Source: an uncultured Candidatus Saccharibacteria bacterium (lineage in GTDB: Bacteria > Patescibacteriota > Minisyncoccia > UBA6257). From it: a DNA stretch of 64,000 bases. A model generated the notes under the pieces. It was given only the letters and a program-made list of their open reading frames with translations, had not been told where the DNA came from and searched no databases. Location of the stretch: contig CAYZJA010000001.1 in assembly GCA_964479005.1 (NCBI GenBank), forward strand, positions 192,001 through 256,000, written 5' to 3'. The translations under genes were made by a program, and so were the position numbers. Shown here in pieces: positions 1 to 19,997 of the stretch. How positions within the stretch are numbered: the stretch's first letter is position 1; every line of letters starts with the position of its first letter.

Positions 1-124
1 TAGGATTATTAAAGAAGAATCATCGGGGGCAGGCGTTAGGAGAATTAAGGCTGTTTTAGAATAGAGTTTGTGGTATAATAAATTACTTTTTTATGGTATA
101 CTTAAAACATAACTTGCAATAAAA

Positions 125-1522
125 ATGGAGAATTCTCAAAAAAGGAAAAGAAAAGTTAAAGATATTTTTTCCCCACACGAATTAAATAATTATTCGTCTG
201 ACGAAAAAAAAGTTGAGGAAAAAGAAATTCCAATTCATTTGACTGATAAATTACAGCAAGAAAGAAAGGTCGAAGACGCTAAAACAGAAAGTGAAGAGAG
301 TATAACAGTCATTACTTCTGGTCTTAAAGAAAAATGGGCGAAAAAGGAAAAGGCAATTAATAAAAAGATAATGATCCTTCTTGGAGTATTTTTTTCTTTG
401 GTTGCCTTTTATTATTTAGGATTTGTATTTTTAGCTAAGGCAGAAATTAATATTATTACCAAGAAGATAGAGATGCCTTTTTCAGGCGTTGTTTTAGTGG
501 ATACAAATGTTTCGACAATAAATTTTAATGAAGCAATAATTCCTGGAAATCCATTTATTTTTAAAGCAGAAGAGACGCAAGAATTTTCAAGTTCTGGACA
601 GGGCAAAGACGAAAGAAAAGCCAAGGGAATAATTACTATATATAATAATTACTCAACTTCTCCTCAGATTTTGGTAGCTACAACCCGTTTTGAAACACCT
701 GATCATAAGATATTTCGCTTAGATTCCCGTATTGTTATTCCAGGAGCTACTACTAAAAATGGAGAACTTGTACGGTCTACGATTGATGTAAAAGTTACTG
801 CAGATAAATCAGGGCCTGATTATAATATAGAGGTTTGTAATTTGCCTGATTGTAAATTTACTATTCCAGGATTTGAAGGAACATCAAAGTTTGATGGCTT
901 TTATGGTATTTCTACTAAAGTGATGGCAGGAGGAGCCCTTGCTTCAGTTCCTTTAGTAACTTCAGAAGATTTAAAAGGGGCAGAAGAAATTATTTTTGAA
1001 AAAGTTATGGATTCTATTAATCAGGATTTAGAAAATAAAATTCCAAAAAAACCAAAAGAATTAAAAGTATTACCAGGAGCAAAAAGCAGTATAAATCTTA
1101 CTAATTTGAGTAGTGATGCCAGTATTGGAGATTATCGTGAAAAGTTTTCAGTTAGTGTTGAAGGTGAAATTAAAGTCATTGCGTTCGATGAAGACAGTAT
1201 TATTGAATACATACAAGGAATTCTCGAAAAAGACAAGGATGAAAATTATCATTATTGCCAAAAGCCAGAATTAGAATATTTAGAATTAAAAACCGACTTC
1301 AGTAAAGGCACGATGAGAATGTCAATTAAAACAAATCAAATTGTGTGCCATAAATTATCTTTGGAGGAAATAAAGCAACTTGTTGTTGGAAAAGACAAAA
1401 AGGAGTTAAATCAGATTTTTGGGGCTAATCCTGGTATAAAGGATGTAGAAGTAAATCTTCGGCCATTGTGGATAAGAAAAGTTCCAAATTCTTTAGACAA
1501 AATTAACCTTTTTATTGACTAA
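125..1522 (+). CDS. hypothetical membrane-anchored protein (basic N-terminus, one predicted TM around residues 82-104, large extracytoplasmic domain)
   Basis: 465-aa ORF with a hydrophobic segment ILLGVFFSLVAFYYLGFVFLA; no recognisable catalytic motif; upstream extended -10 TGgTATAAT at 71-79. Confidence 0.45.
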   Translation: MENSQKRKRKVKDIFSPHELNNYSSDEKKVEEKEIPIHLTDKLQQERKVEDAKTESEESITVITSGLKEKWAKKEKAINKKIMILLGVFFSLVAFYYLGFVFLAKAEINIITKKIEMPFSGVVLVDTNVSTINFNEAIIPGNPFIFKAEETQEFSSSGQGKDERKAKGIITIYNNYSTSPQILVATTRFETPDHKIFRLDSRIVIPGATTKNGELVRSTIDVKVTADKSGPDYNIEVCNLPDCKFTIPGFEGTSKFDGFYGISTKVMAGGALASVPLVTSEDLKGAEEIIFEKVMDSINQDLENKIPKKPKELKVLPGAKSSINLTNLSSDASIGDYREKFSVSVEGEIKVIAFDEDSIIEYIQGILEKDKDENYHYCQKPELEYLELKTDFSKGTMRMSIKTNQIVCHKLSLEEIKQLVVGKDKKELNQIFGANPGIKDVEVNLRPLWIRKVPNSLDKINLFID

Positions 1523-1554
1523 AATTAGTTATTCTGATAAACTAATAACGCTTT

Positions 1555-1776
1555 ATGGTACAGAAAAAAGAAGCTGATCGCAAAGAAGGGATTATAACTG
1601 AATCTTTGCGCAATACAATATTTAGAGTGCGTTTAGATGGAGACGATAAAGAAATTTTAGCTCATTTAGCTGGCAAGCTTCGTCTTCATCACATTAAAAT
1701 TCTTCCAGGTGATAGAGTCGTAGTAGAACTATCACCATATGATTCTAGCCGTGGTCGCATTGTTTATCGGCTGTAA
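1555..1776 (+). CDS. infA: translation initiation factor IF-1
   Basis: 73 aa; [50 protein letters not shown] matches the IF-1 S1-like fold consensus; sits directly upstream of rpmJ/rpsM as in the conserved operon. Confidence 0.85.
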
Positions 1777-1798
1777 ACCGATTTTATTTTTAATATAT

Positions 1799-1912
1799 AT
1801 GAAAGTTAGAGCATCAGTAAAAAAAATTTGTAGAAATTGCAAGATAGTGCGACGAAAAGGTCGTGTATATGTAATTTGTCAAAATCCTAAGCATAAACAA
1901 AGACAAGGCTAA
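1799..1912 (+). CDS. rpmJ: 50S ribosomal protein L36
   Basis: Unlisted 37-aa [40 protein letters not shown] (C-x2-C...C-x4-H zinc ribbon of L36) between infA and rpsM. Confidence 0.85.
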
Positions 1913-2006
1913 AGCTCAGATAATTGTTTTAAAAACACGCTAATCGCTATAGTTTTTCTAAACAATTACCTTCGCTTTAATATTTAATCAAATTAAATAA
2001 ATTAAT

Positions 2007-2399
2007 ATGGTTCGTTTTTTAGGTATAAATATACCAGATGATAAAAATATAAATATTGCCCTTACATACATTTATGGAATAGGGCGTTCTTCATCAGAGA
2101 AGCTTTTAAAAGAAGCTAATATTGATTTTCAAAAAAAGACAAAAGATTTAAGTGTTTCCGAATTAAATTCTTTAAAGGAATTAATAGAAAAAAATAAAAT
2201 AAATACAGAGGGTGATTTAAGAAGAAAAGTTAGATCAAATATAAAACGTCTTATAAATGTTAATTCTTATCGTGGAATAAGGCATACAAAAAAATTACCA
2301 TTAAGGGGGCAAAGGACAAAAACAAATTCTCGTACAGTAAGAGGGAATGTACGAAGGACAGTTGGTTCTGGGAAAAAGAAAGCCCCAACAGCAAAGTAA
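2007..2399 (+). CDS. rpsM: 30S ribosomal protein S13
   Basis: 130 aa; INIALTYIYGIGRSSSEKLL... and a basic C-terminal tail typical of S13. Confidence 0.9.
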   Translation: MVRFLGINIPDDKNINIALTYIYGIGRSSSEKLLKEANIDFQKKTKDLSVSELNSLKELIEKNKINTEGDLRRKVRSNIKRLINVNSYRGIRHTKKLPLRGQRTKTNSRTVRGNVRRTVGSGKKKAPTAK

Positions 2400-2424
2400 G
2401 ATTAATAATTTTTAATTTTGGGAT

Positions 2425-2868
2425 ATGGGCAAAAAGAGAGTTATTACTAAATCTGGAGAAGATATTAGTAAAATAGAAGAAAAAGCATCTTCTATTAAAG
2501 CTAAAGCCTCTTCTAAGAAACACTTAGAAACAGGAAGAATTTATATTCGCGCTTCTTATAATAATACATCTGTATCACTTACTGATCTAAAAGGTGGTCT
2601 TATTGCTTGGTCTTCAGCCGGATCTTTAGGGTTTAAGGGACCTAAGAAGGCAACTCCTTTTGCTGCGTCAAAAGTAGTGTCTGTTCTAATGGAAAAAACA
2701 AAGAAGATTGGATTAAAAACTGTAGAAATTTATGTAAAGGGGATTGGTGGTGGAAGAGAAACAGCAATTCGCTCTTTAGCTAACCATGGGCTTGATATTC
2801 TTTTAATAAAAGATATAACGCCAATGCCCCATAACGGACCACGTCCTCCAAAGGTGAGGAGAGTTTAA
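2425..2868 (+). CDS. rpsK: 30S ribosomal protein S11
   Basis: IYIRASYNNTSVSLTDLKGGLIAWSSAGSLGFKGPKKATPFAA matches S11. Confidence 0.9.
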   Translation: MGKKRVITKSGEDISKIEEKASSIKAKASSKKHLETGRIYIRASYNNTSVSLTDLKGGLIAWSSAGSLGFKGPKKATPFAASKVVSVLMEKTKKIGLKTVEIYVKGIGGGRETAIRSLANHGLDILLIKDITPMPHNGPRPPKVRRV

Positions 2869-2888
2869 GAATTAAAAATTATAATAGT

Positions 2889-3506
2889 ATGTTGGATGAT
2901 AAATGTAAAAAATGTAGGGCAGTTGGGGAGAAACTGTTTTTAAAAGGAGAAAGATGCTTTACTCCCAAATGCGCCTTAATAAGAAGGGGATTTAGGGTTT
3001 TAGGAAAAAGGAGAAGAAGAAAAACGTTAACTTCTTATGGCAAACAGTTATTAGAAAAACAAAAGGTAAAGTTAGCTTATGGAATGAGGGAAAAACAATT
3101 TAGAAGATATTTTAAAATGGCGTTAAAAAAGAAAATTTCTACTCCAGAAGCTTTTGCTCAATTAATAGAAAATCGTTTTGATAATACAGTGTTTCGTTTA
3201 GGATTTACTATTTCCAGAACGATGGCTAGACATTTAGTAAGCCATGGCCATTTTTTCTTAAACGGACGAAAACACAATATTTCTTCTACAATTGTGAAAA
3301 AAGACGATGTTATTTCTATCAGGCCACAGAGTAGCAGCAAAGCGCCTTTTAAAGATATTAAAGAAAGATTAAAAAAATATAGTCCTCCAAAGCATCTTAA
3401 ATTAGATATGAATAAAATGGAAGGAAAAGTTATGGCAGATCCAGATTTAGAAGAATTACAATTGCCTTTTGATTTCACTTCAATTGTAGAATTTTATAGC
3501 AGATAG
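2889..3506 (+). CDS. rpsD: 30S ribosomal protein S4 (zinc-ribbon type)
   Basis: N-terminal CKKC...CFTPKC zinc ribbon; S4 domain NGRKHNISSTIVKKDDVISI. Confidence 0.9.
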   Translation: MLDDKCKKCRAVGEKLFLKGERCFTPKCALIRRGFRVLGKRRRRKTLTSYGKQLLEKQKVKLAYGMREKQFRRYFKMALKKKISTPEAFAQLIENRFDNTVFRLGFTISRTMARHLVSHGHFFLNGRKHNISSTIVKKDDVISIRPQSSSKAPFKDIKERLKKYSPPKHLKLDMNKMEGKVMADPDLEELQLPFDFTSIVEFYSR

Positions 3507-3559
3507 TATTAATTTGATTTAAAATTAAAAACTACAAAATTAAAAATTATATTAATATC

Positions 3560-4486
3560 ATGTTTCATTTACCTTCTTCAATAAAAATCATTGAGCAAGA
3601 AAAAAACTATGGAAAATTTGAAATCGAAGGACTATATCCTGGTTACGGAGTAACTATTGGTAATGCATTAAGGCGAGTTCTCCTTTCTTCCATAGAAGGC
3701 GCGGCAGTAACATCCTTTAAAATTAAAGGGGTTCATCATGAATTTTCTACTATTAATTATATTTCTGATACAGTTTTGGACATAATGCTTAATTTAAAAC
3801 AATTAAGAGTAAAACTGCACAGTAACGAGCCTCAGGTTTTAAAATTAAAGGTTGAAGGCGAAAAAAAGGTATATGCCAAGGACTTTGAATCTAATTCCAT
3901 GGTGGATGTAATGAACCCTGATTTATATATTACAGCCATTACAGATAAAAAAGGCAAAATAGAAATGGAGGTAGTGGTAGAAAAAGGATTAGGTTATTCA
4001 CAGGTAGAAGAACGCAAGGAAGATAAGATACCAATAGGTACTATTGCTGTTGATTCTATTTTTAGTCCGGTTCGAAGGGTTAATTTTCAAGTAGAAAATA
4101 TGAGAGTTAGGGAAAAAACCGATTACAATCGTTTAATTATTTCAATTGAAACAGATGGCTCTGTTTCTCCAAAAGAAGCGCTAAATAAAGCATCTGCGAT
4201 TTTAAAAGATCATTTTATTAATATTGAAGAAAAATTTGTTCCAGAACTTAAAGAAGAAAAAAAGGTTACTTCAAAAAAAGCAGGTAAGGAACCAAAAGAT
4301 ATCCTCATAAAAGATTTAGATTTGGGCTCTCGAACAAAAAAAGCCTTAATAAATAATGGAGTCAAGACTTTAGCTGGCTTATTGAGATATAACGAAGAAA
4401 ATTTATCAACCATGGATGGTTTAGGTAAGAAATCATTGGAAGAAATAAAAGCAATTCTTAAAAATTTAAAGTATACATTAAAGTAA
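3560..4486 (+). CDS. rpoA: DNA-directed RNA polymerase subunit alpha
   Basis: 308 aa; NTD YGKFEIEGLYPGYGVTIGNALRRVLLSSIEGAAV; CTD with LGSRTKKALINNGVKTLAGLL. Confidence 0.9.
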   Translation: MFHLPSSIKIIEQEKNYGKFEIEGLYPGYGVTIGNALRRVLLSSIEGAAVTSFKIKGVHHEFSTINYISDTVLDIMLNLKQLRVKLHSNEPQVLKLKVEGEKKVYAKDFESNSMVDVMNPDLYITAITDKKGKIEMEVVVEKGLGYSQVEERKEDKIPIGTIAVDSIFSPVRRVNFQVENMRVREKTDYNRLIISIETDGSVSPKEALNKASAILKDHFINIEEKFVPELKEEKKVTSKKAGKEPKDILIKDLDLGSRTKKALINNGVKTLAGLLRYNEENLSTMDGLGKKSLEEIKAILKNLKYTLK

Positions 4487-4524
4487 GAACCTGCTCGCTC
4501 TGCTCGCAGAACCTTGTTTCTCAC
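4487..4524 (+). promoter_or_regulatory. conserved intercistronic motif GAACCTGC-N-CAGAACCTTGTTTyTCA immediately after the rpoA stop (second copy after priA at 32711-32740)
   Basis: Near-identical 30-38 nt motifs, TAAGAACCTGC...CAGAACCTTGTTTCTCA versus TAAGAACCTGCTTTACAGAACCTTGTTTTTCA, both fused to a TAA stop and followed by the next cistron (rplQ, def). Confidence 0.4.
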
Positions 4525-4544
4525 TTTGTTCGAAATAAAAATAG

Positions 4545-4931
4545 ATGAAGCATCTAAAGAAAGGGAAAAAATTCCATAGAAAGACAGGCCAACGAAAAGC
4601 TCTTTTAAAAGGTTTAGCTGCCAATTTAATATTACGGGAAAGAATTAAAACCACTCCAGTAAAAGCTAAAGAGACAAGAACTAAAGTAGAGAAATTAATA
4701 ACTATTGCCAAAAAACAAAATTTAATTGCCCTAAGAAAAATTAAAGAAGATTTACCAGAGAAAGCAGCTAATAAATTATATTATGAAATTGCTCCATTGT
4801 ATAAAGATAGAAAAGGCGGATATACCAGAATTATTAAAACCTCAATGAAAAAGGTTAGAGATGCTTCGCCTTTAGTCATATTAGAATTTGTTAAAGAACA
4901 AAAAACAGTAAATACAGTAAATAAAGAATAA
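4545..4931 (+). CDS. rplQ: 50S ribosomal protein L17
   Basis: MKHLKKGKKFHRKTGQRKALLKGLAANLI...GGYTRIIK typical of L17. Confidence 0.9.
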   Translation: MKHLKKGKKFHRKTGQRKALLKGLAANLILRERIKTTPVKAKETRTKVEKLITIAKKQNLIALRKIKEDLPEKAANKLYYEIAPLYKDRKGGYTRIIKTSMKKVRDASPLVILEFVKEQKTVNTVNKE

Positions 4932-5294
4932 ATGGAAAAAGAGAACAAAAATGTTGTTACAATAGATGCCAAAGACAAATCTTTAGGAAGAATGGCGTCC
5001 AGGATTGCTGTTTTGCTTCAAGACAAACATAAGGCTCAATATGCCCCAAATAAAGTTGGTGATACAGTTGTTATAATAGAAAATCTTAGCAAGATAAAAC
5101 CGTTTAAGGAAACAAAATTAAGAACAAAAACTTATTATAAGCATACTGGTTACATAGGCCACTTAAAAGAGACAAAGTTATCTGATATGTGGGAAAAAGA
5201 TCCAGTAAAAGTCCTTAAAATAGCTGTTAGAGGTATGTTGCCTAAAAATAAACTCAGAGATAAAAGACTAAAAAGATTAGAAATAAACTTGTAA
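4932..5294 (+). CDS. rplM: 50S ribosomal protein L13
   Basis: 120 aa; LGRMASRIAVLL...VVIIENLSKI...GMLPKNKL matches L13. Confidence 0.85.
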   Translation: MEKENKNVVTIDAKDKSLGRMASRIAVLLQDKHKAQYAPNKVGDTVVIIENLSKIKPFKETKLRTKTYYKHTGYIGHLKETKLSDMWEKDPVKVLKIAVRGMLPKNKLRDKRLKRLEINL

Positions 5295-5331
5295 CAATTA
5301 ATAAATGATAGGGAATAAATAACAATAAATA

Positions 5332-5859
5332 ATGGATAAAAAGAAAACAGTTAAAAAAACAACATCTGTAAAGAAAGAGACAAAGAAAACGGTGAAGAAA
5401 GAAGCGAAGAGAAAAGTAAAAAAAGAAGTCAAAAAAGCTGTAACAAAAAAGGAAGTCAAGAAGGAAATCAAGAAAAAGTATATTGAAGCTGTTGGTAGAA
5501 GAAAAGAATCTGTAGCTCGTGTAAGGCTTATCAAAGACAAGCCAGGTTTTATTATTAATGAAAAAACAATGGAAGAATATTTTTCTTTGCGGGATTATCA
5601 CAAAAAGATATTAGATCCTTTCAAAACAACTAATTTAGAAAATAGTTTTTTTGTTTCAATAAAAGTAAAAGGAGGTGGAATTACCGGTCAAGCTGAAGCT
5701 ATTAGATTAGGAATTAGCCGTTGTTTAATAAAAATTGATAAGAAATTAAAACCAGCATTAAGAAAAGCGGGATTTTTGACACGTGATGCTCGTATTGTAG
5801 AAAGAAAGAAATATGGTTTGAAAAAGGCTAGAAAGGCTGCACAGTGGTCAAAAAGATAA
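5332..5859 (+). CDS. rpsI: 30S ribosomal protein S9 with a lysine-rich N-terminal extension
   Basis: C-terminal 130 aa matches S9 (GRRKESVARVRL...GGGITGQAEAIRLGISRCL...RDARIVERKKYGLKKARKAAQWSKR); N-terminal 45 aa are VKKE-type repeats. Confidence 0.9.
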   Translation: MDKKKTVKKTTSVKKETKKTVKKEAKRKVKKEVKKAVTKKEVKKEIKKKYIEAVGRRKESVARVRLIKDKPGFIINEKTMEEYFSLRDYHKKILDPFKTTNLENSFFVSIKVKGGGITGQAEAIRLGISRCLIKIDKKLKPALRKAGFLTRDARIVERKKYGLKKARKAAQWSKR

Positions 5860-5895
5860 ATTAACTCTTTACCTTTCTTATTAATTCTTATTAAA

Positions 5896-5925
5896 AAGCA
5901 TCTCTCAATAAGGTGCTTTGTTTCT
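5896..5925 (+). terminator. intrinsic terminator of the ribosomal operon
   Basis: AAGCATC-tctcaataa-GGTGCTT stem (one G-U pair) followed by a TGTTTCTT run. Confidence 0.55.
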
Positions 5926-5953
5926 TGACAAGATGAGATATATTTGTTATATT
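5925..5953 (+). promoter_or_regulatory. sigma70-like promoter (TTGACA-17-TATATT) at the left edge of the inserted island
   Basis: TTGACA at 5925-5930, 17-nt spacer, TATATT at 5948-5953. Confidence 0.55.
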
Positions 5954-6088
5954 AAATACAATAGAACAGTTACTGATATAACCATCGGAAGGTAATAAAA
6001 TTAAATAAATCTTATTTAAAGAAAAACGGGTTTCTACAATTCAAGAAAGTGAGTTAAATGTGAATAATTCTCCTAATCGGGTATAATT

Positions 6089-6316
6089 ATGAATAACAAA
6101 CCCATCATAACTAAGGAGAAAGCACAAAAACTTTCTAAGCTTTTCGATAATCCTACTAATTTTAAACAGGCTTGTATTAAGGTTTTATTAGAAGTACCTG
6201 ATGAAAAACTGGATTTTTACAAAGGGAACTTGACTTTTTCAAAAAATGGTGGTACAATTTTGACGAAAATAGAACAATTTTGCGAACAGAAACAATTTAA
6301 GAGTTTTAAGAATTAA
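6089..6316 (+). CDS. small hypothetical protein, paralogue 1 (75 aa)
   Basis: MNNKPIITKEKAQKLSKLFDNPTNFKQACIKVLLEVPDEKLDFYKGNLTFSKNGG...; about 70% identical to the next ORF; no SD; ATG abuts a TATAAT box. Confidence 0.5.
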   Translation: MNNKPIITKEKAQKLSKLFDNPTNFKQACIKVLLEVPDEKLDFYKGNLTFSKNGGTILTKIEQFCEQKQFKSFKN

Positions 6317-6317
6317 A

Positions 6318-6428
6318 CAATTGAATCATACAATTTAATTAGTTTGCCGAGAAGGTGACGCTAACCGAAGAGGGGCGTCTAGACTATCTCTAAGTTTATT
6401 AGGGGTCGTCTGGACACCCCTTTTTTCA
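6318..6428 (+). repeat. about 110-nt GC-rich structured 3' element, copy 1 of 2 (nested hairpins GGGGCGTC...GACACCCC plus T-run)
   Basis: Near-identical copy at 6662-6772; ends in CCCCTTTTTT (terminator-like). Confidence 0.6.
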
Positions 6429-6653
6429 ATGAATAACAAATTTATTATAAACAAAAGAAAATATCAGGAACTTTCTAAACTCTTTGATAATCCTACTAAT
6501 TTTAAGGAAGCTTGTATAAAACTTCTGTTAGAAATACCAGATAAAAAATTAGATTTTTACAAAGGGAACTTGACTTTTTCAAAAAACGGTGGCATGATTC
6601 TAATGAAAATAGAAGAATTATGTGGGTCAAAACACTTTAATTTTAAAGATTGA
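6429..6653 (+). CDS. small hypothetical protein, paralogue 2 (74 aa)
   Basis: MNNKFIINKRKYQELSKLFDNPTNFKEACIKLLLEIPDKKLDFYKGNLTFSKNGG...; ATG lies 2 nt after the T-run of the preceding hairpin. Confidence 0.5.
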   Translation: MNNKFIINKRKYQELSKLFDNPTNFKEACIKLLLEIPDKKLDFYKGNLTFSKNGGMILMKIEELCGSKHFNFKD

Positions 6654-6661
6654 ACCTACAT

Positions 6662-6772
6662 AGATTAAATCATACAATTTAATTAGTTTGCCGAGAAGGT
6701 GACGCTAACCGAAGAGGGGCGTCTGAACTATCTCTAAGTTTATTAGGGGTCGTCTGGACGCCCCTTTTTTTA
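6662..6772 (+). repeat. about 110-nt structured 3' element, copy 2 (stem GGGGCGTC/GACGCCCC plus T7)
   Basis: Direct repeat of 6318-6428 with a perfect outer stem in this copy. Confidence 0.6.
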
Positions 6773-6938
6773 TTGGAAATTATTGGGAAAAAATATCAAC
6801 TGGATATTGAGAAAAAAATAGTACTTTATAGCACCTTGAAAAATAGCACCTTGAAATAAAAATTTAGTGAAATGAGAGATAAGAAAAAGATAAAAGTATA
6901 AGAAAGAAATGTATTAGAAAGAAAGGAGGTGAAACAAA

Positions 6939-8138
6939 ATGACAAAACGCAAATGGACTAAAGAAGATGACGAATATCTTATCCAACATAGTCCGAAACA
7001 ACGGGGAGATTATGGGAAGTTGGCTATCAAACTTGATAGAACAGTAGAAGCAGTGAGGTATAGGTGTAGAAATCTAAAATTGGAAAATGTCCAAAAGAAT
7101 AGTCAGGCACAGAGAACAGATGTTCCATTAGAAGATAGGATTTACGAATTGCTTTCACATTCCAAAAAACATTCTATTGAGGAGCTAAGTAATACATTTG
7201 ATATTTGTGTAGGAAAGGTTAAAGAAGCATTAGGTGTATTACAGAGCAGACGGATTTTAATAGACGCAATAGATGACAAAATTGTTTTAGGGAATACGAT
7301 TAAACCACCAAAAGCCACTCCAATTCCGATGAAGATTTATCATAATAGGTGGATTAAGTTTGGAGTAATCAGTGATACTCATTTGAACTCCAAATATCAA
7401 AGATTGGATATTTTAAACCACGCTTATAAAATCTTTCAGAAAGAAGGAGTGAAGAATGTTCTACACGCTGGGAATATTATAGATGGTTATGGTAGATTAA
7501 ATCAGTTTGATGTATTTAACATCGGGACAGAAGACCAAATCAACTATTGTATTGAAACCTATCCTTGTAAGCAAGGGATTACTACTCACTTCATTACTGC
7601 TGATGATCACGAGGGATGGATTGTAAGGAGAGAACACATTAACATCGGAGAATTACTTGAACTCAAAGCTAACAAAATGGGTAGAAAAGATTTGAAACAT
7701 TTAGGATATATTGAAAGTGATGTGTTAGTTAAAGTTGGAAGCAAACCTACAAGAATTAGAGTATTCCATCCTGGCGGAGGCACAGCATATTCTCTTTCTT
7801 ATAAACCTCAGAAGATTGTTGAGTCCTTACAGGGTGGAGAAAAACCTGATATATTATTAGTCGGACATTTTCATAAACTCGGACATTTTGAATGGCGGAA
7901 TGTGGAAGTGTTATTGACTGGTTGTATAGAAGACCAAACTCCATTTATGAGAAAGAAACATATTGCTGCTCATCTTGGTTTCTATATTGTGAAAGCCCAT
8001 ATTGCTCCTGACGGTTCTGTCAATAGATTCATTCCAGAAAAGATTAGCTATTACGATAGGAAATATTATACCAGCAGAGCTTGGAAGAAAACTCCTACCA
8101 GTTTTGAAAAACCTATTGAATGGTTTTACAAGTGGTAA
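6939..8138 (+). CDS. Myb/SANT-like HTH + winged-helix + calcineurin-like metallophosphoesterase fusion protein
   Basis: N-terminus W-x2-EDDEYL...G-x-W-x2-IA-x2-L-x-RT-x5-R (Myb-like); phosphoesterase motifs GVISDTHLN, HAGNIIDG, LLVGHFHK; strong SD AAGGAGGTG. Confidence 0.55.
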   Translation: MTKRKWTKEDDEYLIQHSPKQRGDYGKLAIKLDRTVEAVRYRCRNLKLENVQKNSQAQRTDVPLEDRIYELLSHSKKHSIEELSNTFDICVGKVKEALGVLQSRRILIDAIDDKIVLGNTIKPPKATPIPMKIYHNRWIKFGVISDTHLNSKYQRLDILNHAYKIFQKEGVKNVLHAGNIIDGYGRLNQFDVFNIGTEDQINYCIETYPCKQGITTHFITADDHEGWIVRREHINIGELLELKANKMGRKDLKHLGYIESDVLVKVGSKPTRIRVFHPGGGTAYSLSYKPQKIVESLQGGEKPDILLVGHFHKLGHFEWRNVEVLLTGCIEDQTPFMRKKHIAAHLGFYIVKAHIAPDGSVNRFIPEKISYYDRKYYTSRAWKKTPTSFEKPIEWFYKW

Positions 8139-8208
8139 GTATTCGCTCTTAAAACAAAACGGGGTGTCTTAAACACAGACACCCCTAATCTCACAGGAGG
8201 TGATTTTG

Positions 8209-8781
8209 ATGAAAATCTTAATCGATTTGGACGGAACAGTATTTGAGACTTACGACACTTTAGAAGAAAAGTTTGTCCAGAAATTTAATCGCAAAATGAA
8301 CTGGCAGGCGCTGAAAAGCGGCAAGAATCATTACTGGCAAACAGATGGGGGTAAGTGGATAGTCAAGCAATTCAAAGACCCAAACTTTTATTACAATTTA
8401 GAAACTTATCCTGATGCTCCCAAAGTGTTAAGGCAACTTGCCCGAAAACATACAATCATATATTGTACCGCGAGGAGGTTTGGATTAGAAAATGCCACCT
8501 CCTATTCGCTTGGTTATAGAAAACTGCCATTCGGGAAGGTATATTGTATTGGCAGGAGACACATTGCGGGGGTTAAAAAGAGAATTGCCTTAGATGAAAA
8601 AATTGACCTTGCTATTGATGATGAATCAAAAGTGGTAGAAAAACTTTCTGAAGTCTGTCAAGTTTTGATATTTACTCAGAATTATAATAAAGGTTGTAAA
8701 TTCGGTAAGAGAGTAAAATCTTGGAAGGAGGTGCGTCATGAATTACAAGCAAAGAAAAGAAATAATAGAACAAGCAAATAA
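8209..8781 (+). CDS. HAD-superfamily 5'(3')-deoxyribonucleotidase-like protein (NT5C family)
   Basis: MKILIDLDGTV (HAD motif I DxDGT) after SD AGGAGG; phage-type nucleotidase architecture. Confidence 0.55.
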   Translation: MKILIDLDGTVFETYDTLEEKFVQKFNRKMNWQALKSGKNHYWQTDGGKWIVKQFKDPNFYYNLETYPDAPKVLRQLARKHTIIYCTARRFGLENATSYSLGYRKLPFGKVYCIGRRHIAGVKKRIALDEKIDLAIDDESKVVEKLSEVCQVLIFTQNYNKGCKFGKRVKSWKEVRHELQAKKRNNRTSK

Positions 8782-9073
8782 AAGACGTCAATCCTTAATG
8801 CTTAATAAAGGAAAAGAATATTCAAAGGGTAATGCCGATATTAATTATAACTTTAAAGAAGTTGCTGATAGATTAGGCACTCGTCTTGCTGGAACTCCTG
8901 AATATACTTGTTTAGTTTATTTATTCAAACAGATTTTATCAATAGAGAAATGGGCAAGAGATGGAAAGTTAAGTTCAGGGGAAACAATTTTTTCAAGATT
9001 AGATGATGCCAGAAACTACATGGATATTTTAGAAAGTCTGATAAGAGAAAAATCCGATGTACAAGGAAGGTGA
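8738..9073 (+). CDS. hypothetical protein (111 aa)
   Basis: ORF with an SD-like GGAGGTG upstream; overlaps the end of the preceding gene. Confidence 0.35.
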   Translation: MNYKQRKEIIEQANKRRQSLMLNKGKEYSKGNADINYNFKEVADRLGTRLAGTPEYTCLVYLFKQILSIEKWARDGKLSSGETIFSRLDDARNYMDILESLIREKSDVQGR

Positions 9074-9220
9074 TGGTATGGAAATTCAGAATGTTTACTG
9101 TTTGATTAAGATTACTTGTGTTGTGATTATTGTAGTAGGATTTTTCGCAATTGTTCAATTACATCTTAAAAGAGAAAAGCAAAGGATACGGGATTATTAT
9201 AAAAGAGGAGGTGATAAGCG

Positions 9221-10303
9221 ATGAAAAAACTACTCGTAGTATTGATTTGTTTGTTTCTATTAGTTCCAACTGTAATTTCTGCACCAGTTGAAAGATTAAG
9301 TGTAGGAGATTTTACTCGTGCAGTAACGGCTCAGATAGTCTGTAATGTTGATGTGTATAGACGGGATTTAACCTGGTATAAGATTGAGGATGGTCAGGTG
9401 ATCCCTGAATTCAAAGATTTAGATGAAGATGACTGGGCATATCAATGGTTAAAGAAAGGCTGGTTCGTGGTATATGGCGAATGGAATACAGAACCTCGCA
9501 AAGGTAAGATAATGGGTTCTGGTGAAGTATTATATTCCTGGTTATTACCTATGGGGATTAACTTAGAAGGTAAACCTGCTGCAACTTATGTAGGCACAAA
9601 TGCCCATGTGGTAGATGTATTTATGTTAGAAGCCAGTAGGGGTTCAAGAGATAAACCATTAGACCTATATGCCGAGAAGGACACGATGAAGACAATGAAT
9701 ATGCTTAGAACGACTTATAAAGAAGAGGCTAAACCAATAGCCCAGTATTACTTTGATATAGATAACAGTTATATCACTGTAAAGACCGAAGCAGACCAAA
9801 GATTTAGAACTAAAGTTAACATCGTATTGTTTGACATAGCATTAGATTTTGCCTTATTGGAAATGGAAAATGTTTTAGGTCTGCCTTATGTGAGTTTTAG
9901 AGGCACTCCTATACAGGTTGGCGAAACGATTAAAATCTGTGGAGCACCATTAGGATTTGCTTTTAGTAGAGACGAAGGACGAGTAAGTCAAGTTCACTTA
10001 AATCTCGGAACTGATGGAGTGGAAGATTATATTGTATGGGATAACCAAGTGCGTATGGATATTGCTGCTGCACCAGGAAGTTCGGGTAGTGCGATATTTG
10101 ATAAAGATGGCTATATGATTGCCCAATTACACGGAATAATGGTTCACAACGGCAACTATATTCAAGGCGGACAATTAGCAGTAGACCAAGAAGATATAAT
10201 TCGTTTTCTGGTGTTAAATGGTTTTTCGTGGATAGTTCAAAATCCTTATGGAATTTGGGCTAACGCACCATATAATACAGTCCGACCAAAAGTAGGAGAA
10301 TAG
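9221..10303 (+). CDS. secreted trypsin-like (S1/HtrA-type) serine peptidase
   Basis: Signal peptide MKKLLVVLICLFLLVPTVISAP; catalytic-triad-like motifs GTNAHVVD (His), DFALLE (Asp), APGSSGSAIF (Ser). Confidence 0.55.
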   Translation: MKKLLVVLICLFLLVPTVISAPVERLSVGDFTRAVTAQIVCNVDVYRRDLTWYKIEDGQVIPEFKDLDEDDWAYQWLKKGWFVVYGEWNTEPRKGKIMGSGEVLYSWLLPMGINLEGKPAATYVGTNAHVVDVFMLEASRGSRDKPLDLYAEKDTMKTMNMLRTTYKEEAKPIAQYYFDIDNSYITVKTEADQRFRTKVNIVLFDIALDFALLEMENVLGLPYVSFRGTPIQVGETIKICGAPLGFAFSRDEGRVSQVHLNLGTDGVEDYIVWDNQVRMDIAAAPGSSGSAIFDKDGYMIAQLHGIMVHNGNYIQGGQLAVDQEDIIRFLVLNGFSWIVQNPYGIWANAPYNTVRPKVGE

Positions 10304-10536
10304 AAATGAGAATTAACGCAGAGGGGGCTTACCTTGATGGTTTCTAAAAGTCCCCCTCCAGCTGTATGGAGGTGATTAAGATGAGGTGGTTATTACTCAC
10401 ATTTGCAATATCTACTATCATATCTTTTGTAGGATTTGTGAATTGTAAAATGGAAAAGGAGAAAGATTGGTTTATTGCGTTATTGGTTTCTGCAACATTA
10501 GTTGTATTGATGTTTGTTGAATTATCTTAGGGGGAG

Positions 10537-10893
10537 GTGATAGAGATGAAGAAACGAAGAAAAAAGCAAAAAGTTAAGAGAGAAGTTTTAAAGAAAATTG
10601 TTAGAGAGAAAAAGGTTTGTTATTTCTGTGGAACTACCGAGAATATAACCGAGCATCACATAATTTTTAAGTGTTTCATTAAAGGCGGAGAGTTACCAAA
10701 TAACAAGAAAGACATTTGTGATAAGTGCCACAAGCAGTTTCATAAATTAGCAAAACCTGTTGTGGATTTACTCTTATCGGTAATTCAAGGATTACAACCG
10801 AAACCAACTCGGAAAATAGGATTCATAAGAACGAACAACAAAGGAGGCGAAAGAAATGAGAAACATAAAAAGATGTCTATTGTTCTATCCTGA
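10537..10893 (+). CDS. HNH-type zinc-finger nuclease-like protein
   Basis: CYFCG...EHHIIF...CDKCHKQFH (C-x2-C...HH...C-x2-C-H). Confidence 0.5.
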   Translation: MIEMKKRRKKQKVKREVLKKIVREKKVCYFCGTTENITEHHIIFKCFIKGGELPNNKKDICDKCHKQFHKLAKPVVDLLLSVIQGLQPKPTRKIGFIRTNNKGGERNEKHKKMSIVLS

Positions 10894-11080
10894 CATACTG
10901 CCAGCTTTACCTTGTTCTTATCCCGATGAGGATAAATGCGGTAGATATATGAAAATCTATCGTAGAAGTAAGAACAGAAAACAGGCAATAGTTCTTTGCT
11001 CACATCGGGTTAAAGAATTAGGTAGAAAGACTTGTGTCAGAGAACAAATGAAACTCAAAGATTCTACAATTTACAGGTAG
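10856..11080 (+). CDS. Cys-rich mini-protein (74 aa), paralogue of 11436-11630
   Basis: Shared motif PC-x-YPD-x2-KCGR and a later C-x-H/C pair. Confidence 0.35.
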   Translation: MRNIKRCLLFYPDILPALPCSYPDEDKCGRYMKIYRRSKNRKQAIVLCSHRVKELGRKTCVREQMKLKDSTIYR

Positions 11081-11113
11081 AATTCTCAAAGCCATTAGAA
11101 GGAGGGAGAAGAA

Positions 11114-11275
11114 ATGAAAACAAGAATAGTAGTAATTGTAGAAAATGAAATATCTTATTCAGTAAATGATTTTACCAGAATGGAACTCAAAGTTTTCAAG
11201 AAAAGGATTAAGGAACAGATAGAAGAGAAATTGTTAGCAGGTTGGAAAGTGATAAAAATAAAAATTAGGAGGTAA
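11114..11275 (+). CDS. small hypothetical protein (53 aa)
   Basis: ATG 8 nt after GGAGGGAG; MKTRIVVIVENEISYSV... Confidence 0.3.
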   Translation: MKTRIVVIVENEISYSVNDFTRMELKVFKKRIKEQIEEKLLAGWKVIKIKIRR

Positions 11276-11435
11276 GAAGTAATGAGAATAACAAGAGAAG
11301 AGCTCGTAAAACAAGGATGGTCATTTATGAGAAGAATAAGCAGAAATTGCGAAATCTGGACAAGAGAAGAAGGAATGATCCTATGGAATAGAGAAACATT
11401 AAAGGTTTATGTGATATGTTAGGAGGTAAAAAGAA

Positions 11436-11630
11436 ATGAGAGATATTTATCGTTGTCCGATTATGTGGAAACTTTTAAAGAAAGCAACTCCTTGTGCGTA
11501 TCCTGATGTTGAAAAATGTGGAAGAGTTGGTGGCTCTTTCCTTTGTAAATATCGGATAGCTGAAATAGGTAAAAAGAATTGCCTTAAAGAAGTTGCTGAG
11601 TTGAAAGATTTTGCTAAAACTCTCAAATAA
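11436..11630 (+). CDS. Cys-rich mini-protein (64 aa)
   Basis: MRDIYRCPIMWKLLKKATPCAYPDVEKCGRVGGSFLCKYRIAEIGKKNCLKE; SD AGGAGGTAA. Confidence 0.35.
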   Translation: MRDIYRCPIMWKLLKKATPCAYPDVEKCGRVGGSFLCKYRIAEIGKKNCLKEVAELKDFAKTLK

Positions 11631-11794
11631 AAGCCAATGGCAAGAGGGCTATATCTCTTGCCACTCTCTCGGAGGGTATTTGTAGATGTTGTTCAAAATC
11701 ACATAAGTCCCATTTTTCTACAAGTATCTTCCGAGAGGGTAATTTCCTCAAACTAATAAAGGTCTTTAAAAAATAATCATAAATAAATATAAAT

Positions 11795-11995
11795 ATGAAA
11801 TTTTGGAAACCTCTCACAAAATACAGATATAGCAAAGAGAGAAATGAAGTTAAATATCATACTGATTTTATGCTTGATAAAGAAGAAGGATTTGAATTAA
11901 GATTTGCGGACTTTATGTTTAAGGAAAAAGTTCCAAAAGATAAGGTTTGGAAATGTCATCTTGAGCTTGCTGTGGAGGAATTTAATGAAAAATAA
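11795..11995 (+). CDS. hypothetical protein (66 aa)
   Basis: ORF only. Confidence 0.25.
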   Translation: MKFWKPLTKYRYSKERNEVKYHTDFMLDKEEGFELRFADFMFKEKVPKDKVWKCHLELAVEEFNEK

Positions 11996-12103
11996 AACAA
12001 CCAAAAAACATTGTGCGTTACATTATAAATCTAAATAAACTTAGTTATATTATTTTAATAGATTAAAACAATTTTTAAATTTTACGAATTAGAATATGTT
12101 CCA

Positions 12104-12556
12104 ATGTTCCAAATATCCGAAGAAAAATTAAAAAAGATAAGAACGGTAGAAATTGCCATCAATAAGAATTTATTTTTAATTTGTATTGTTATTTCAGTAA
12201 TAACAATGAGTATTTTAGGAATAGAATTTTTTAGCCATAGAATCTTTCCTTCTTCTAAAATAAGTTTTTTTTACATTGGGATTTTGTTGATTTATTCTAT
12301 TCATAAGGAAATGTTGAGATGGGTAGGAGCAAAAAGAATAGAAAGGCAAGGTGAGTGGTTTGTTTATTTTTGGATCGGATTTACTATCATCTTATATGTT
12401 ATTAATTTCTCTACAAAAGGTTATTTTAATTATCCTTTAGGAAATACATCATCGGAATCGCTTAATCAAATTGCCGTTACTACTTTAGAAATCTGCGGCA
12501 TTTTTATTGTTTCTAGATTATCTAAGATGGCAAAGATTATTTTGGAAAAAAGATAA
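12104..12556 (+). CDS. hypothetical integral membrane protein (4 predicted TM)
   Basis: Hydrophobic segments throughout. Confidence 0.4.
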   Translation: MFQISEEKLKKIRTVEIAINKNLFLICIVISVITMSILGIEFFSHRIFPSSKISFFYIGILLIYSIHKEMLRWVGAKRIERQGEWFVYFWIGFTIILYVINFSTKGYFNYPLGNTSSESLNQIAVTTLEICGIFIVSRLSKMAKIILEKR

Positions 12557-12624
12557 TAATAATATTCTAAGATAGAACATTTTTTGTATTTTGAAAATTA
12601 AAAAGAGAGGAGGTGGACAATTTG

Positions 12625-13258
12625 ATGAAATTATTAAGAGTTTTTTTTGTCAGCTTTTGGGAAAGGAATTATAACTTTGGTTCCAATCTTAATTATTTTC
12701 TGGTTACTTGGACTTTTTTTGGGAGAAAATATGATAACTATGCGAGATATCATATTTTCTATTTTAAGGGGATTACTTCCTAGGGGGATGGTAGTGCAAG
12801 AGTGGATGATTGGTTTAGGATTGATTTTAACTATTCTGTTTGTCGGTTTAATTTCTTCATCAATTTTCAAAAGAATCTACGCCTGTACAGGTAGATTAAT
12901 AGGTAAATTAATCCAAAAATCATTAACAGGGAAAATAAAAGAACAATATCAGGATCAGGGTATGGTGATATTTGAGTTTAGGGAAGGAATATGGATTCCA
13001 GGAATTATAGTTGGATATATAGCAGGAAGTGAAAAACTTAAGGGTGGAAAATTTTTGAGAATCTTTATTCCCAATGTACCCATACCTTTAACTGGATTTT
13101 CACCTATTTTTGTGCAAGAAAGCAAAGTGATACATATCGATCTTCCGGTTGATGAGGTACTTAATATGTATATTTCAGCTGGGATATTAGGCCCTAAAAG
13201 ACTCCCAGAAATAGTCAGGGAATTAGAGAAAAGAGAAATAATATCAAAAATAGACTAG
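12625..13258 (+). CDS. DUF502-family membrane protein, interrupted by a +1/-1 frame change in a T8 homopolymer (12641-12648)
   Basis: SD AGGAGGTGG is 9 nt upstream of ATG 12625 (frame 0), which reads MKLLRVFF... The long DUF502 body (P-x-P-x-TG motif FIPNVPIPLTGFSPIFV) is in frame +1 from 12647. One extra T would fuse them into MKLLRVFFLSAFGKG..., a typical DUF502 N-terminus. Confidence 0.55.
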
Positions 13259-13276
13259 TAGAGACTTTTAAAGGCG

Positions 13277-13322
13277 GTCTCAATATTTATCTGAGAACCG
13301 CCCTTTTTTTTGGTATAAGAAA
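13277..13322 (+). terminator. intrinsic terminator after the DUF502 gene
   Basis: GGCGGTCTC...GAGAACCGCC stem followed by T8. Confidence 0.6.
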
Positions 13323-13432
13323 ACTCTAATCTATACCAGGGATGGATTGACTAACAAGATTATTAGTGGTATAATTGGATTACTCTACTTAGTACTCTTG
13401 AAAATTTTAAAAAAAGGAGGAAAAAGAAAAAG

Positions 13433-13675
13433 ATGAAAAGGATATTATTTGAAAAGAACGCTAAAAGAATTACAAAGGCAGTAGCAGAATTTGTTGCAGA
13501 AGAATTTAAGCCTTTGAGGGAAGGGGATAAGATAAAAAAGATAGGAGAGCTGTTAAAGGGTTTTGAAGACACAAAAAAAATAAATGGAAATTTTTTTGTT
13601 GTTCTTCGATTACCTGAAGGGACAGAAGCAGCAATTGACTTACAAGGAAGACTTTATGACTTAAATGAAATTTGA
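13433..13675 (+). CDS. hypothetical protein (80 aa)
   Basis: SD AAGGAGG upstream. Confidence 0.35.
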   Translation: MKRILFEKNAKRITKAVAEFVAEEFKPLREGDKIKKIGELLKGFEDTKKINGNFFVVLRLPEGTEAAIDLQGRLYDLNEI

Positions 13676-13703
13676 TTTTAGGCAATAGGAGGCGAAAAAC
13701 ATA

Positions 13704-13787
13704 ATGACAGTAACTACATTTTCAGAATTCTTGCCCTGGTTTGTAATAATGATCGGAGTGTATTTTTTATCTCTTTGGATAAAATAA
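13704..13787 (+). CDS. small hydrophobic peptide (27 aa, MTVTTFSEFLPWFVIMIGVYFLSLWIK)
   Basis: Unlisted ORF with a perfect SD AGGAGG 7 nt upstream; single TM. Confidence 0.35.
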   Translation: MTVTTFSEFLPWFVIMIGVYFLSLWIK

Positions 13788-13842
13788 GACAACAAAACCG
13801 CTTAGAAGGTTGCATAAGTGTAACTGGACAAGCGGTTTTAAA

Positions 13843-13871
13843 TTGCTATATTCGCTTTTTTGTGATATAAT
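13843..13871 (+). promoter_or_regulatory. promoter of the efflux operon (TTGCTA-17-TGaTATAAT, extended -10)
   Basis: TTGCTA 13843-48; TATAAT 13866-71 preceded by TGa; upstream stem AAACCGCTT/AAGCGGTTT. Confidence 0.5.
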
Positions 13872-13889
13872 TTTAGAACAAAAATACTT

Positions 13890-15461: not shown

Positions 15462-15468
15462 TAACTCT

Positions 15469-16179
15469 ATGATACAAATAGAGAGTCTTAAAAAGATTTA
15501 TCGCAATGATTCTGTTGAAACCCCAGCTCTTCAAGGGGTTTCTTTTAGGATTAAACAAGGAGAATTTGTTTCTATCATGGGACCTTCTGGTTCTGGGAAA
15601 TCAACTTTAATGCATATCATGTGCTTTTTAGACAGACCAAGTTCAGGAATTTGTAAATTTGAAGGAAAGAGTATTGATAGTTTAACTGATGATGAGTTAG
15701 CAAGAATCAGAAATAAAAAAATGGGTTTTGTTTTTCAATCCTATAATCTTTTATCCAGAACTACTGTTTTTGACAACGTGAGATTACCTTTAATTTATAC
15801 TGGTTTTTCTAAACAAAAAGAATATGAGATGACAAAACAGGCCCTTGAGGCAGTTGGTATTTTACATAGGGCTTCTCATTTTCCAAATCAGCTTTCTGGT
15901 GGAGAACAGCAAAAAACAGCAATTGCCCGGGCAATAGTCAATCATCCGTCTGTAATTTTTGCAGATGAACCAACTGGTAATTTAGACAGTAAATCTGGTC
16001 AGCAAATAATGGATATTTTTGAAAAACTTAATAATCAAGGCCATACTGTAATTTTAGTTACGCATGAGAAATATACTGCTGAAATGGCAAAAAGGATTAT
16101 TTCATTAAAAGACGGAAAAGTAATTAAAGATGAATTAGTAAATTCAAGGCATTATGCTAAGGATGGTTTAATTAAATGA
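15469..16179 (+). CDS. ABC transporter ATP-binding protein (MacB/LolD family)
   Basis: Walker A GPSGSGKST, signature LSGGEQQ, Walker B IIFADEPTGNLD. Confidence 0.85.
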   Translation: MIQIESLKKIYRNDSVETPALQGVSFRIKQGEFVSIMGPSGSGKSTLMHIMCFLDRPSSGICKFEGKSIDSLTDDELARIRNKKMGFVFQSYNLLSRTTVFDNVRLPLIYTGFSKQKEYEMTKQALEAVGILHRASHFPNQLSGGEQQKTAIARAIVNHPSVIFADEPTGNLDSKSGQQIMDIFEKLNNQGHTVILVTHEKYTAEMAKRIISLKDGKVIKDELVNSRHYAKDGLIK

Positions 16180-16183
16180 AATT

Positions 16184-17437: not shown

Positions 17438-17439
17438 AT

Positions 17440-18759: not shown

Positions 18760-18876
18760 ATAATTCGTACATATTAATATATTTGTATCATTAAGATTAT
18801 ATATGATTTGAGCTTAAAAAGAAAATATTATACAATAGAAGAGTGATAAAAAATAGAAAAGTACTTAAAAAAATAG

Positions 18877-19977: not shown

Positions 19978-19997
19978 TAATTAATTCAAAACCTAAT

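Follow-up and report, generated by a model that had tools for sequence, protein, structure and literature searches.

Two small genes lying head to tail at 6089-6772 of the window (the entire 64-kb stretch of DNA from an uncultured Candidatus Saccharibacteria bacterium analyzed here) are each followed by a structured RNA element of about 80 nucleotides (nt). Judged by sequence identity, this element is under stronger constraint than the protein encoded in front of it, both between the two copies and between lineages. The RNA motif and the protein family are both new as far as the collections searched can tell, while being of known kinds, and the family is rare. The interpretation favored here, with a probability of roughly 0.55, is that of a phage-derived accessory module carrying its own intrinsic terminator, which would be leaky or conditional and would comprise an antiterminator-like 5' domain. 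The members of the pair thus defined, a family of small proteins and a conserved RNA motif, both new, always occur together in uncultivated phage-like elements, and one pair of copies has become fixed in what is probably a small-genome bacterium, beside a ribosomal-protein operon.

Two tandem copies of a gene and its 3' element

The features of the two units are listed below. Element coordinates in the text are given for copy 1, and those of copy 2 are obtained by adding 344.

6089-6316, + strand: small gene copy 1, an open reading frame (ORF) encoding 75 amino acids (aa), without Shine-Dalgarno sequence; 12 of 12 family-invariant residues kept
6320-6345, + strand: flank in the 3' untranslated region (3' UTR), kept between both copies only (1 difference with 6664-6689) and unconserved in the related contigs L013, L014 and L018
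6346-6356, + strand: P1 hairpin of element 1, GCC-GAGAA-GGT; invariant GCCGA..AGG.GAC block in five lineages
6357-6379, + strand: P2 helix of element 1, made of GACGCU, a 2-nt bulge, CC, a GAAGA loop, GG and GGCGUC; 8 pairs
6372-6420, + strand: long hairpin of element 1; 22 pair positions, loop GTTTA at 6394-6398, C6376 and A6416 unpaired, 6 G·U pairs
6421-6426, + strand: U-tract of element 1 (T6)
6429-6653, + strand: small gene copy 2, an ORF encoding 74 aa, without promoter of its own or Shine-Dalgarno sequence
6690-6723, + strand: P1 and P2 of element 2, same sequence as in element 1
6716-6764, + strand: long hairpin of element 2; C6720-G6760 paired (a mismatch in element 1), A6726 and C6754 unpaired
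6765-6771, + strand: U-tract of element 2 (T7)

A tandem duplication of a 'small gene plus structured element' unit had been proposed in an earlier sequence-only reading of this DNA and is borne out by direct repeats and alignment. Unit 1 (6089-6428) and unit 2 (6429-6772) each consist of an ORF and its element. The coding parts form a direct repeat (6089-6300 versus 6429-6640) of 78% DNA identity with a spacing of 340 nt, and the 3' parts form a second one (6320-6431 versus 6664-6775) of 95% identity with a spacing of 344 nt. Upon alignment, the homology extends from the ATG exactly to the T-run and no upstream promoter is part of the repeat; the T-run at 6421-6426 is followed by CA and then by the ATG of copy 2 at 6429. 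Six mismatches separate the copies over the 112-nt 3' stretch, three of which are found in the 81-nt core of the element (6346-6426 versus 6690-6770, 96% identity). The G+C content of this core is 52%, as compared to 31% for the window, and the sequence confirms, after each ORF, the G+C-rich element with CCCC and a T-run at its end that had been described. No further copy was found in the 64-kb window by searching 34-nt and 26-nt pieces of the element (0 expected).

Both ORFs are real genes according to their pattern of substitutions. The encoded proteins have the 74-75 aa reported earlier and differ by a single in-frame codon indel; their identity amounts to 76% and not to the approximately 70% first estimated. 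The proportion of synonymous differences between the copies (pS) is 0.68, corresponding to a saturated synonymous rate (dS) of ~1.8, with a nonsynonymous rate (dN) of 0.14 and a dN/dS ratio of 0.078. Third codon positions account for 27 of the 50 differences between the coding copies, and the 12 family-invariant residues are all kept in both. As a ratio of about 0.5 would be expected with one decaying copy, both copies must have been under purifying selection. The saturation of synonymous sites indicates that the duplication is old, and against such a background an unconstrained 81-nt non-coding stretch should be unrecognizable, yet it is 96% identical. The earlier statement that the proteins diverge while the elements stay therefore holds, dN of 0.14 and dS of ~1.8 being set against 3 mismatches in the 81 core positions. 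Two stretches within the genes, 6196-6215 (20 nt) and 6212-6246 (35 nt), are the same in both copies, synonymous sites included. A putative internal promoter (TTGACT-17-TACAAT, 6230-6258) lies in the 35-nt stretch and was discarded, being unconserved in other lineages. A minus-strand ORF of 39 aa across element 1 was discarded as well, as it has no counterpart over element 2.

The proteins of the family are 60-75 aa long. Scans of the small proteins against Pfam, PHROG and NCBIfam gave no family match, and the defense and toxin-antitoxin models of PADLOC gave none for four family members. The AlphaFold model is weak (pLDDT 68), with a predicted helix-helix-strand-strand-strand arrangement, and no fold match was returned by a structural search using this model. 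A marginal resemblance to the AbrB C-terminal domain (AbrB_C, Pfam PF18277; PDB 2mjg) was detected over residues ~32-65, with 35% identity over 34 residues and the common pattern EV.D..L.....G.L..SK.G...I...I. The scores are of the same marginal order: E = 0.07 against PDB, E = 0.038 against Pfam in one of six members, and an hhalign probability of 29%. The AbrB C-terminal domain is reported to be essential for DNA-binding activity (PMC4022651). The N-terminal DNA-binding domain of AbrB is absent from the small protein, and the model of the latter has no structural match.

Conservation and folding of the element

Relatives of the small proteins are scarce. A word-indexed search of 5.8 billion proteins matched only the two copies themselves. 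An exhaustive HMMER search of 1.84 billion representatives, using a profile of the two copies, returned P0123 (E = 1.5e-5) and P0124 (E = 8.9e-5) as the only outside relatives, and a further profile search of 5.8 billion proteins added P0125. The contigs of these relatives (L013, L014/L015 and L016) all display a homologous element 5-23 nt after the stop codon. Two more true loci were recovered by scanning metagenomes with a degenerate DNA pattern derived from the bases common to these elements, namely L018, a new lineage on a 42-kb contig, and L019, which belongs to the L013 lineage; another match, L017, was rejected as a G+C-rich false positive. In every relative found, the homologous element is located 5-36 nt past the stop codon.

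A covariance model (R1) was built from six elements. Its matches occur only behind members of the small-gene family, in the window and at 23 loci of related phage-like DNA, so that the element does not turn out to be a generic terminator shared with unrelated genes, an objection raised along with the initial description. At gathering thresholds no element matches Rfam release 15. With E raised up to 10, a few low-scoring unrelated families touch the window elements, all far below gathering, and with E up to 5 there is no match in three other lineages. Neither the element nor the protein was matched in scans of IMG/VR or of GTDB genomes, a collection which does not contain the genome of the window itself. 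INPHARED phage records gave chance matches only to the unit, in addition to one distant archaeal-virus match to the 399-aa protein encoded downstream.

The relatives make up three further metagenomic lineages, and their identity to the window copies is 32-39% at the protein level. Between lineages, the identity of the element is 0.60-0.73; coding DNA reaches 0.52-0.63 and third codon positions 0.28-0.45. In 13 of the 14 comparisons made between lineages, the element is more conserved than coding DNA and far more so than third codon positions. The higher identity of the element in such comparisons cannot result from gene conversion between tandem copies. The suggestion that the RNA is under stronger constraint than the protein is thus upheld between lineages as well as between copies, and makes a case for selection on the RNA itself.

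The element consists of two small hairpins, P1 and P2, followed by the long terminator hairpin and U5-7. Predicted fold energies are -44 kcal/mol (z = -6.9) and -41.7 kcal/mol (z = -5.4), and the folds of the window copies range overall from -37 to -44 kcal/mol with z from -4.1 to -6.9. Two of the checks proposed at the outset, folding and homology, gave a stable fold (-44 kcal/mol) on the one hand, and no defense-family match with a marginal AbrB_C resemblance on the other. The long hairpin has 20-22 bp across lineages. In the six-sequence alignment, 92% of its cells are paired and seven pairs display changes on both sides; sliding the 3' partner columns by 1-3 positions lowers the pairing to 42-50%. 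CCC(C) and T5-T7 directly follow the stem in 6 of 6 aligned elements, in every lineage. The mismatch between C6376 and A6416 is located five pairs above the U-tract of element 1 and is absent from element 2.

The structure belongs to the sense transcript and is not a DNA palindrome, as indicated by its G·U pairs (3-7 per hairpin) and by the difference between strands. Folding favors the sense strand over the reverse complement by 12-16 kcal/mol (~13 for element 1), and the covariance model scores 78-97 bits in sense against 20-35 bits in antisense.

The most invariant part of the element is the block GCCGARRAGGYGACRYU, which lies outside the terminator stem. P1 has the general form GCC-GARRA-GGY and reads GCC-GAAGA-GGC in two other lineages; its 3 pairs are all kept across lineages, with G-C changing to G-U. 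Across four lineages, pairing in P1-P2 is complete (100%); two changes are compensatory (G-C to A-U and C-G to U-A) and two affect one side only, a covariation which is suggestive and, with so few sequences, not significant. The 5' domain folded alone adopts the same P1 and P2 structure in all four lineages, and the fold of the full element is made of P1 and the long hairpin. The 5' arm of the long hairpin has at its base precisely the 3' strand of P2, GGGGYGUC (6372-6379). As these eight nucleotides are common to both helices, P2 and the long hairpin cannot coexist, and both of these mutually exclusive helices are kept in all lineages. A pseudoknot between the P1 loop and UCUC of the hairpin arm was rejected, as no covariation was apparent by eye, and a transfer RNA (tRNA) or transfer-messenger RNA (tmRNA) was rejected since none is reported at the element by ARAGORN.

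A third hairpin, GGGGTGTC-TTAAACACA-GACACCCC, is found at 8161-8185 between the gene of the 399-aa protein and that of an NT5C-type nucleotidase. It has an 8-bp clamp as in the elements, a pattern seen nowhere else in the 64 kb (0 expected). An A-tract precedes it and there is no U-tract on the + strand, so that it is terminator-like on the - strand only.

Termination, read-through and competing explanations

The element very probably works as an intrinsic terminator, its core being a candidate Rho-independent terminator made of a 20-22-bp G+C-rich sense-specific hairpin followed by U5-7. Among the three functions initially put forward, namely terminator, processing site and small regulatory RNA (sRNA), this one is best supported, the G+C-rich stem and U5-7 being present in every lineage. 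As in intrinsic terminators generally, the G+C-rich stem base is followed by U5-7 on the sense strand, downstream of a stop codon. The element differs from the other terminator-like sites reported in the window by a stem of 20-22 bp instead of 5-11 bp, and from intrinsic terminators in general by a conserved primary sequence tied to one gene family. In the phage relatives, the element would close an operon ending with genes of cell-wall-hydrolase type and would insulate the next one (phosphoesterase, nucleotidase or HNH).

Conditional read-through of the element is possible, if doubtful, and is approached here through the transcription signals of the two units. The best promoter-like site upstream of unit 1 is as follows.

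5925-5953, + strand: candidate promoter, TTGACA-17-TATATT with TG, 11 of 12 positions; outside the repeat

This site is located 135 nt upstream and ties for the top promoter score within 1-20000. The 5' UTR region that follows (5958-6100) has no unusual structure (z = +0.8). The TATAAT noticed earlier next to the first ATG is indeed present at 6082-6087, one base before the ATG at 6089, with no matching -35 box in the scan. Given the usual spacing between a -10 box and the start of transcription, a transcript from this box would begin inside the ORF. The Shine-Dalgarno sequence is missing before both ATGs, as stated in the sequence-only reading, and is missing in the same way in all lineages; being a family trait, its absence is not evidence for a leaderless mRNA, and the leaderless translation then suggested was not retained. 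In L013 and L018 the small gene begins 0-7 nt after the upstream gene. Genes neighboring the units in the window have a strong Shine-Dalgarno sequence of the AGGAGGTGA type, and AAAGGAGGTGA precedes the gene of the 399-aa protein and its L018 homologue. Ribosome-dependent attenuation by way of the stop codon was rejected, since P1 is found at a variable distance of 5 to 36 nt from the stop codon.

Before the ATG of copy 2 stands the terminator stem, and no -10 box is present there. All candidate promoters for copy 2 are upstream of element 1, and copy 2 would therefore be transcribed only through element 1. As it is nevertheless under purifying selection, we infer a leaky or conditional terminator. 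The C·A mismatch of element 1 fits this view and proves nothing. A promoterless second copy directly behind a terminator constitutes a rare natural test, which implies that termination is not absolute. According to the proposed mechanism, an ancient duplication affected a promoterless unit extending from the ATG to the U-tract, at the left edge of a phage-like island beside rpsI, and expression of copy 2 would need read-through of element 1.

The 5' domain may provide the means of such control. P1-P2 would form first in the course of transcription, would sequester GGGGYGUC and would have to be displaced by the 3' arm, a competition which might render termination leaky or conditional; read-through would increase with any factor holding P1-P2, a role which the small protein itself might play. 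Attenuators and riboswitch platforms display the same arrangement of exclusive helices with one common strand (here P2 versus the terminator base), the 5' helix being transcribed first. The element differs from them by having no recognizable aptamer, leader peptide, known binding protein or Rfam match, and by its location 3' of its partner gene instead of in a 5' leader. Some likeness to the lambda N/nut system is also noted. P1 is capped by an all-purine G...A pentaloop (GAGAA or GAAGA) such as that of boxB; in P2, three of four lineages have GAAGA, GACAA or GACGA as the loop and L018 has UACAAAU, and a small phage protein gene lies alongside. Loops such as GAAGA, GAAAA and GACAA occur in boxB, and the resemblance of the P1 and P2 loops is considered as a lead only. 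In contrast to N/nut, no boxA-like sequence is seen by eye, the P1 stem has 3-5 bp only, an arginine-rich motif is absent from the small protein (no Arg in copy 1, a single one in copy 2), and the element stands directly against one terminator instead of far upstream.

In its most specific form, which is quite unlikely, the proposal would make the small protein and the RNA a self-contained switch, operating in phages whose hosts are A+T-rich bacteria with small genomes. Possibly oligomeric through an AbrB_C-like domain, the protein would bind the purine-pentaloop hairpins of P1-P2 and hold the antiterminator; it may set read-through from the lysis-end operon into the next one and, in a lysogen-like island, from copy 1 to copy 2 and beyond. 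Such a switch, if true, would be a new antitermination system unrelated to N/nut, Q/qut and put. If P1-P2 is a binding site, a compact and portable termination switch would be at hand from organisms with almost unstudied gene regulation. If it is not, the unit is still an example of a gene-specific terminator, and it also illustrates the gain, duplication and loss of 'gene plus hairpin' modules at a single phage hot spot.

A natural deletion variant has to be taken into account in this respect. The 551-kb contig L001 (3250-3300) matches the window at 100% identity over 6.2 kb except for a 276-nt deletion of 6382-6657, which lies between two CTA triplets and removes the 3' half of element 1 together with all of copy 2. 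This 3-nt microhomology is not what the collapse of a repeat by an assembler would produce, and the deletion thus looks real and recent.

Several observations weigh against a leaky or conditional terminator controlled by its 5' domain. Copy 2 is dispensable in the short term, as L001 lacks it, which tempers the read-through argument. Promoter-like matches occur at chance density in this A+T-rich DNA. The support for P2 covariation is weak, as it depends on two double changes and the observed score is reached by 27 of 500 shuffles; its 5' strand resembles the 3' arm of the terminator, so that P2 pairing may be in part a by-product. Enforcing P2 costs 10-13 kcal/mol relative to the terminator conformer, and P2 may never matter. 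The small protein displays no recognizable RNA-binding motif and its model, as mentioned, has a pLDDT of 68. Finally, gene conversion may contribute to the near-identity of the two window elements, and the number of independent lineages in the comparison is limited to four or five.

The closest competitor, itself unlikely, is a plain strong terminator, whose conservation would result from co-inheritance and gene conversion and in which P1-P2 would be incidental or would protect the RNA 3' end. The canonical hairpin and U-tract, the energetic preference of 10-13 kcal/mol for the terminator fold, the weak statistical support for P2 and the local recombination attested by the 276-nt deletion all agree with such a simple device. 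It accounts less well for an element whose sequence outlasts the coding DNA at 32-39% protein identity, beyond the reach of gene conversion, for a block (GCCGARRAGGYGACRYU) which is the most invariant part while lying outside the stem, and for a promoterless copy 2 still under purifying selection behind element 1.

A trans-acting sRNA directed at phage or host transcripts is decidedly unlikely; it would be released from the 3' UTR by cleavage or transcribed from a promoter of its own just upstream of P1 (~85 nt, up to the terminator). Conservation of a 3' UTR above that of its coding sequence is a classic mark of 3'-UTR-derived sRNAs, DapZ and CpxQ being enterobacterial examples, and the present 3' UTR, terminator included, shares this property as well as a stable structure with its own terminator. 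In addition, TACAAT -10-like boxes with a weak -35 are found at 6306-6334 and 6650-6678, in a flank identical in both copies. These promoter matches, however, reach just 9 of 12 positions, at chance density, and no positionally conserved promoter-like box is seen in L013, L014 and L018. The conserved bases differ from those of the enterobacterial sRNAs in being located mainly in helices, which leaves little single-stranded seed.

It is very improbable that the element is an RNA processing or stabilizing site, the 20-22-bp imperfect duplex acting as an RNase III-type substrate by which the mRNAs of the small genes would be separated and stabilized, in the manner of the phage T7 early-gene hairpins. 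The stem is far longer than in a usual terminator, imperfect and placed between tandem small genes, and the 8161-8185 hairpin has the same clamp with no + strand U-tract between co-directional genes; the U-tract, needless for pure processing, is nevertheless invariant in all lineages, and the conserved P1-P2 block would be left unexplained. A DNA recombination site, with the unit as a mobile cassette made of an ORF and an imperfect inverted repeat like integron attC or phage att, is scarcely credible: a tandem array of promoterless ORFs with inverted repeats and the gain and loss of 'gene plus hairpin' units at the same junction in related contigs would suit it, but the pairing requires 3-7 G·U pairs and loses much of its strength on the opposite strand, a U-tract is present, no GTTRRRY or RYYYAAC core sites occur at the unit borders, the L001 deletion ends at a 3-nt microhomology and not at the element borders, and no integron-type integrase is found beside the units, the only tyrosine recombinase being 16 kb away among housekeeping genes.

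Accessory nature and genomic surroundings

The two units occupy the left edge of a phage-like island of ~6 kb (about 6000-12000) located between rpsI and an operon encoding a HlyD/MacB-type transporter. Upstream, the genes rpsD, rpoA, rplQ, rplM and rpsI are followed by a short terminator-like hairpin at 5895-5919. Two features are found immediately downstream of the units.

6828-6856, + strand: tandem ATAGCACCTTGAAA motif before the gene of the 399-aa protein, identified by repeat search; same motif before the homologous gene in L018 and L005/L008
6939-8138, + strand: gene of 399 aa with a Myb/helix-turn-helix-like N-terminus and a metallophosphoesterase domain, preceded by a strong Shine-Dalgarno sequence; used for the synteny comparison

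The following genes of the island encode the NT5C-type nucleotidase, a phrog_6802 protein, a trypsin-like peptidase and an HNH endonuclease, along with many tiny ORFs. Capsid, tail and terminase genes were not found within the island, nor an adjoining integrase. Housekeeping genes resume from ~13.9 kb with the HlyD/MacB-type transporter, FtsW, MurG, GltX and an Xer-like recombinase. The low G+C content, the presence of ribosomal and cell-wall genes and the existence of a 551-kb contig suggest that the bacterium has a small genome.

Homologues of the 399-aa protein number more than 600 and occur on short phage-like contigs, next to a peptidoglycan-binding protein, HNH, a DnaB-like ATPase and a methylase. 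Upstream of these homologues, the module is absent in L009, L010 and L020-L025 and present in the window and L018. As most relatives of the gene are devoid of it, the module is an accessory unit at an operon junction. In module-bearing relatives, it is preceded by transglycosylase-like ORFs (read from the sequence, the domain names not having been scanned) and followed by genes of replication or nucleotide-metabolism type, namely RNase H-like, HNH and phosphoesterase genes. A further case is provided by L005 and L008, compared at the same junction: L005 contains an unrelated 74-aa gene between two copies of a different long hairpin, and L008 a single hairpin and no gene. This difference indicates that 'gene plus hairpin' units are gained and lost at the junction, as morons do. 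In L005 (2350-2890; L008, 1700-1830), both hairpins begin with TAGCACCTTAAACTAATAGTTCTTTT.

A phage-derived accessory module of the moron type is accordingly the best reading of the unit that the comparative data suggest. Phage morons are independent transcription units of accessory nature found in phages, lambdoid ones among them (PMC3594210). Like them, the unit would combine a small accessory gene and a factor-independent terminator of its own, present or absent between the same neighbors at an operon junction, and retained in an integrated phage-like island. It differs from morons in three respects. The terminator has been inherited together with the gene across deep divergence and surpasses it in conservation, a conserved domain outside the terminator is present in the element, and neither the gene of the phage relatives nor copy 2 of the window has a promoter of its own, the only candidate being located before unit 1.

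The motif at 6828-6856 may mark the start of the downstream transcription unit, a phage promoter or an operator. The form (A/T)AGCACCTT(G/A)AA before the phosphoesterase gene is also found in L018 (~577-593) and in L005 (~2352, 2765 and 2913). It is not enriched elsewhere in the window, with 5 matches against 4.2 expected when one mismatch is allowed. Two other small ORFs of the island, at 10856-11080 (74 aa, PCSYPDEDKCGRY...) and 11436-11630 (64 aa, PCAYPDVEKCGRV...), look paralogous and could represent a second duplicated small gene.

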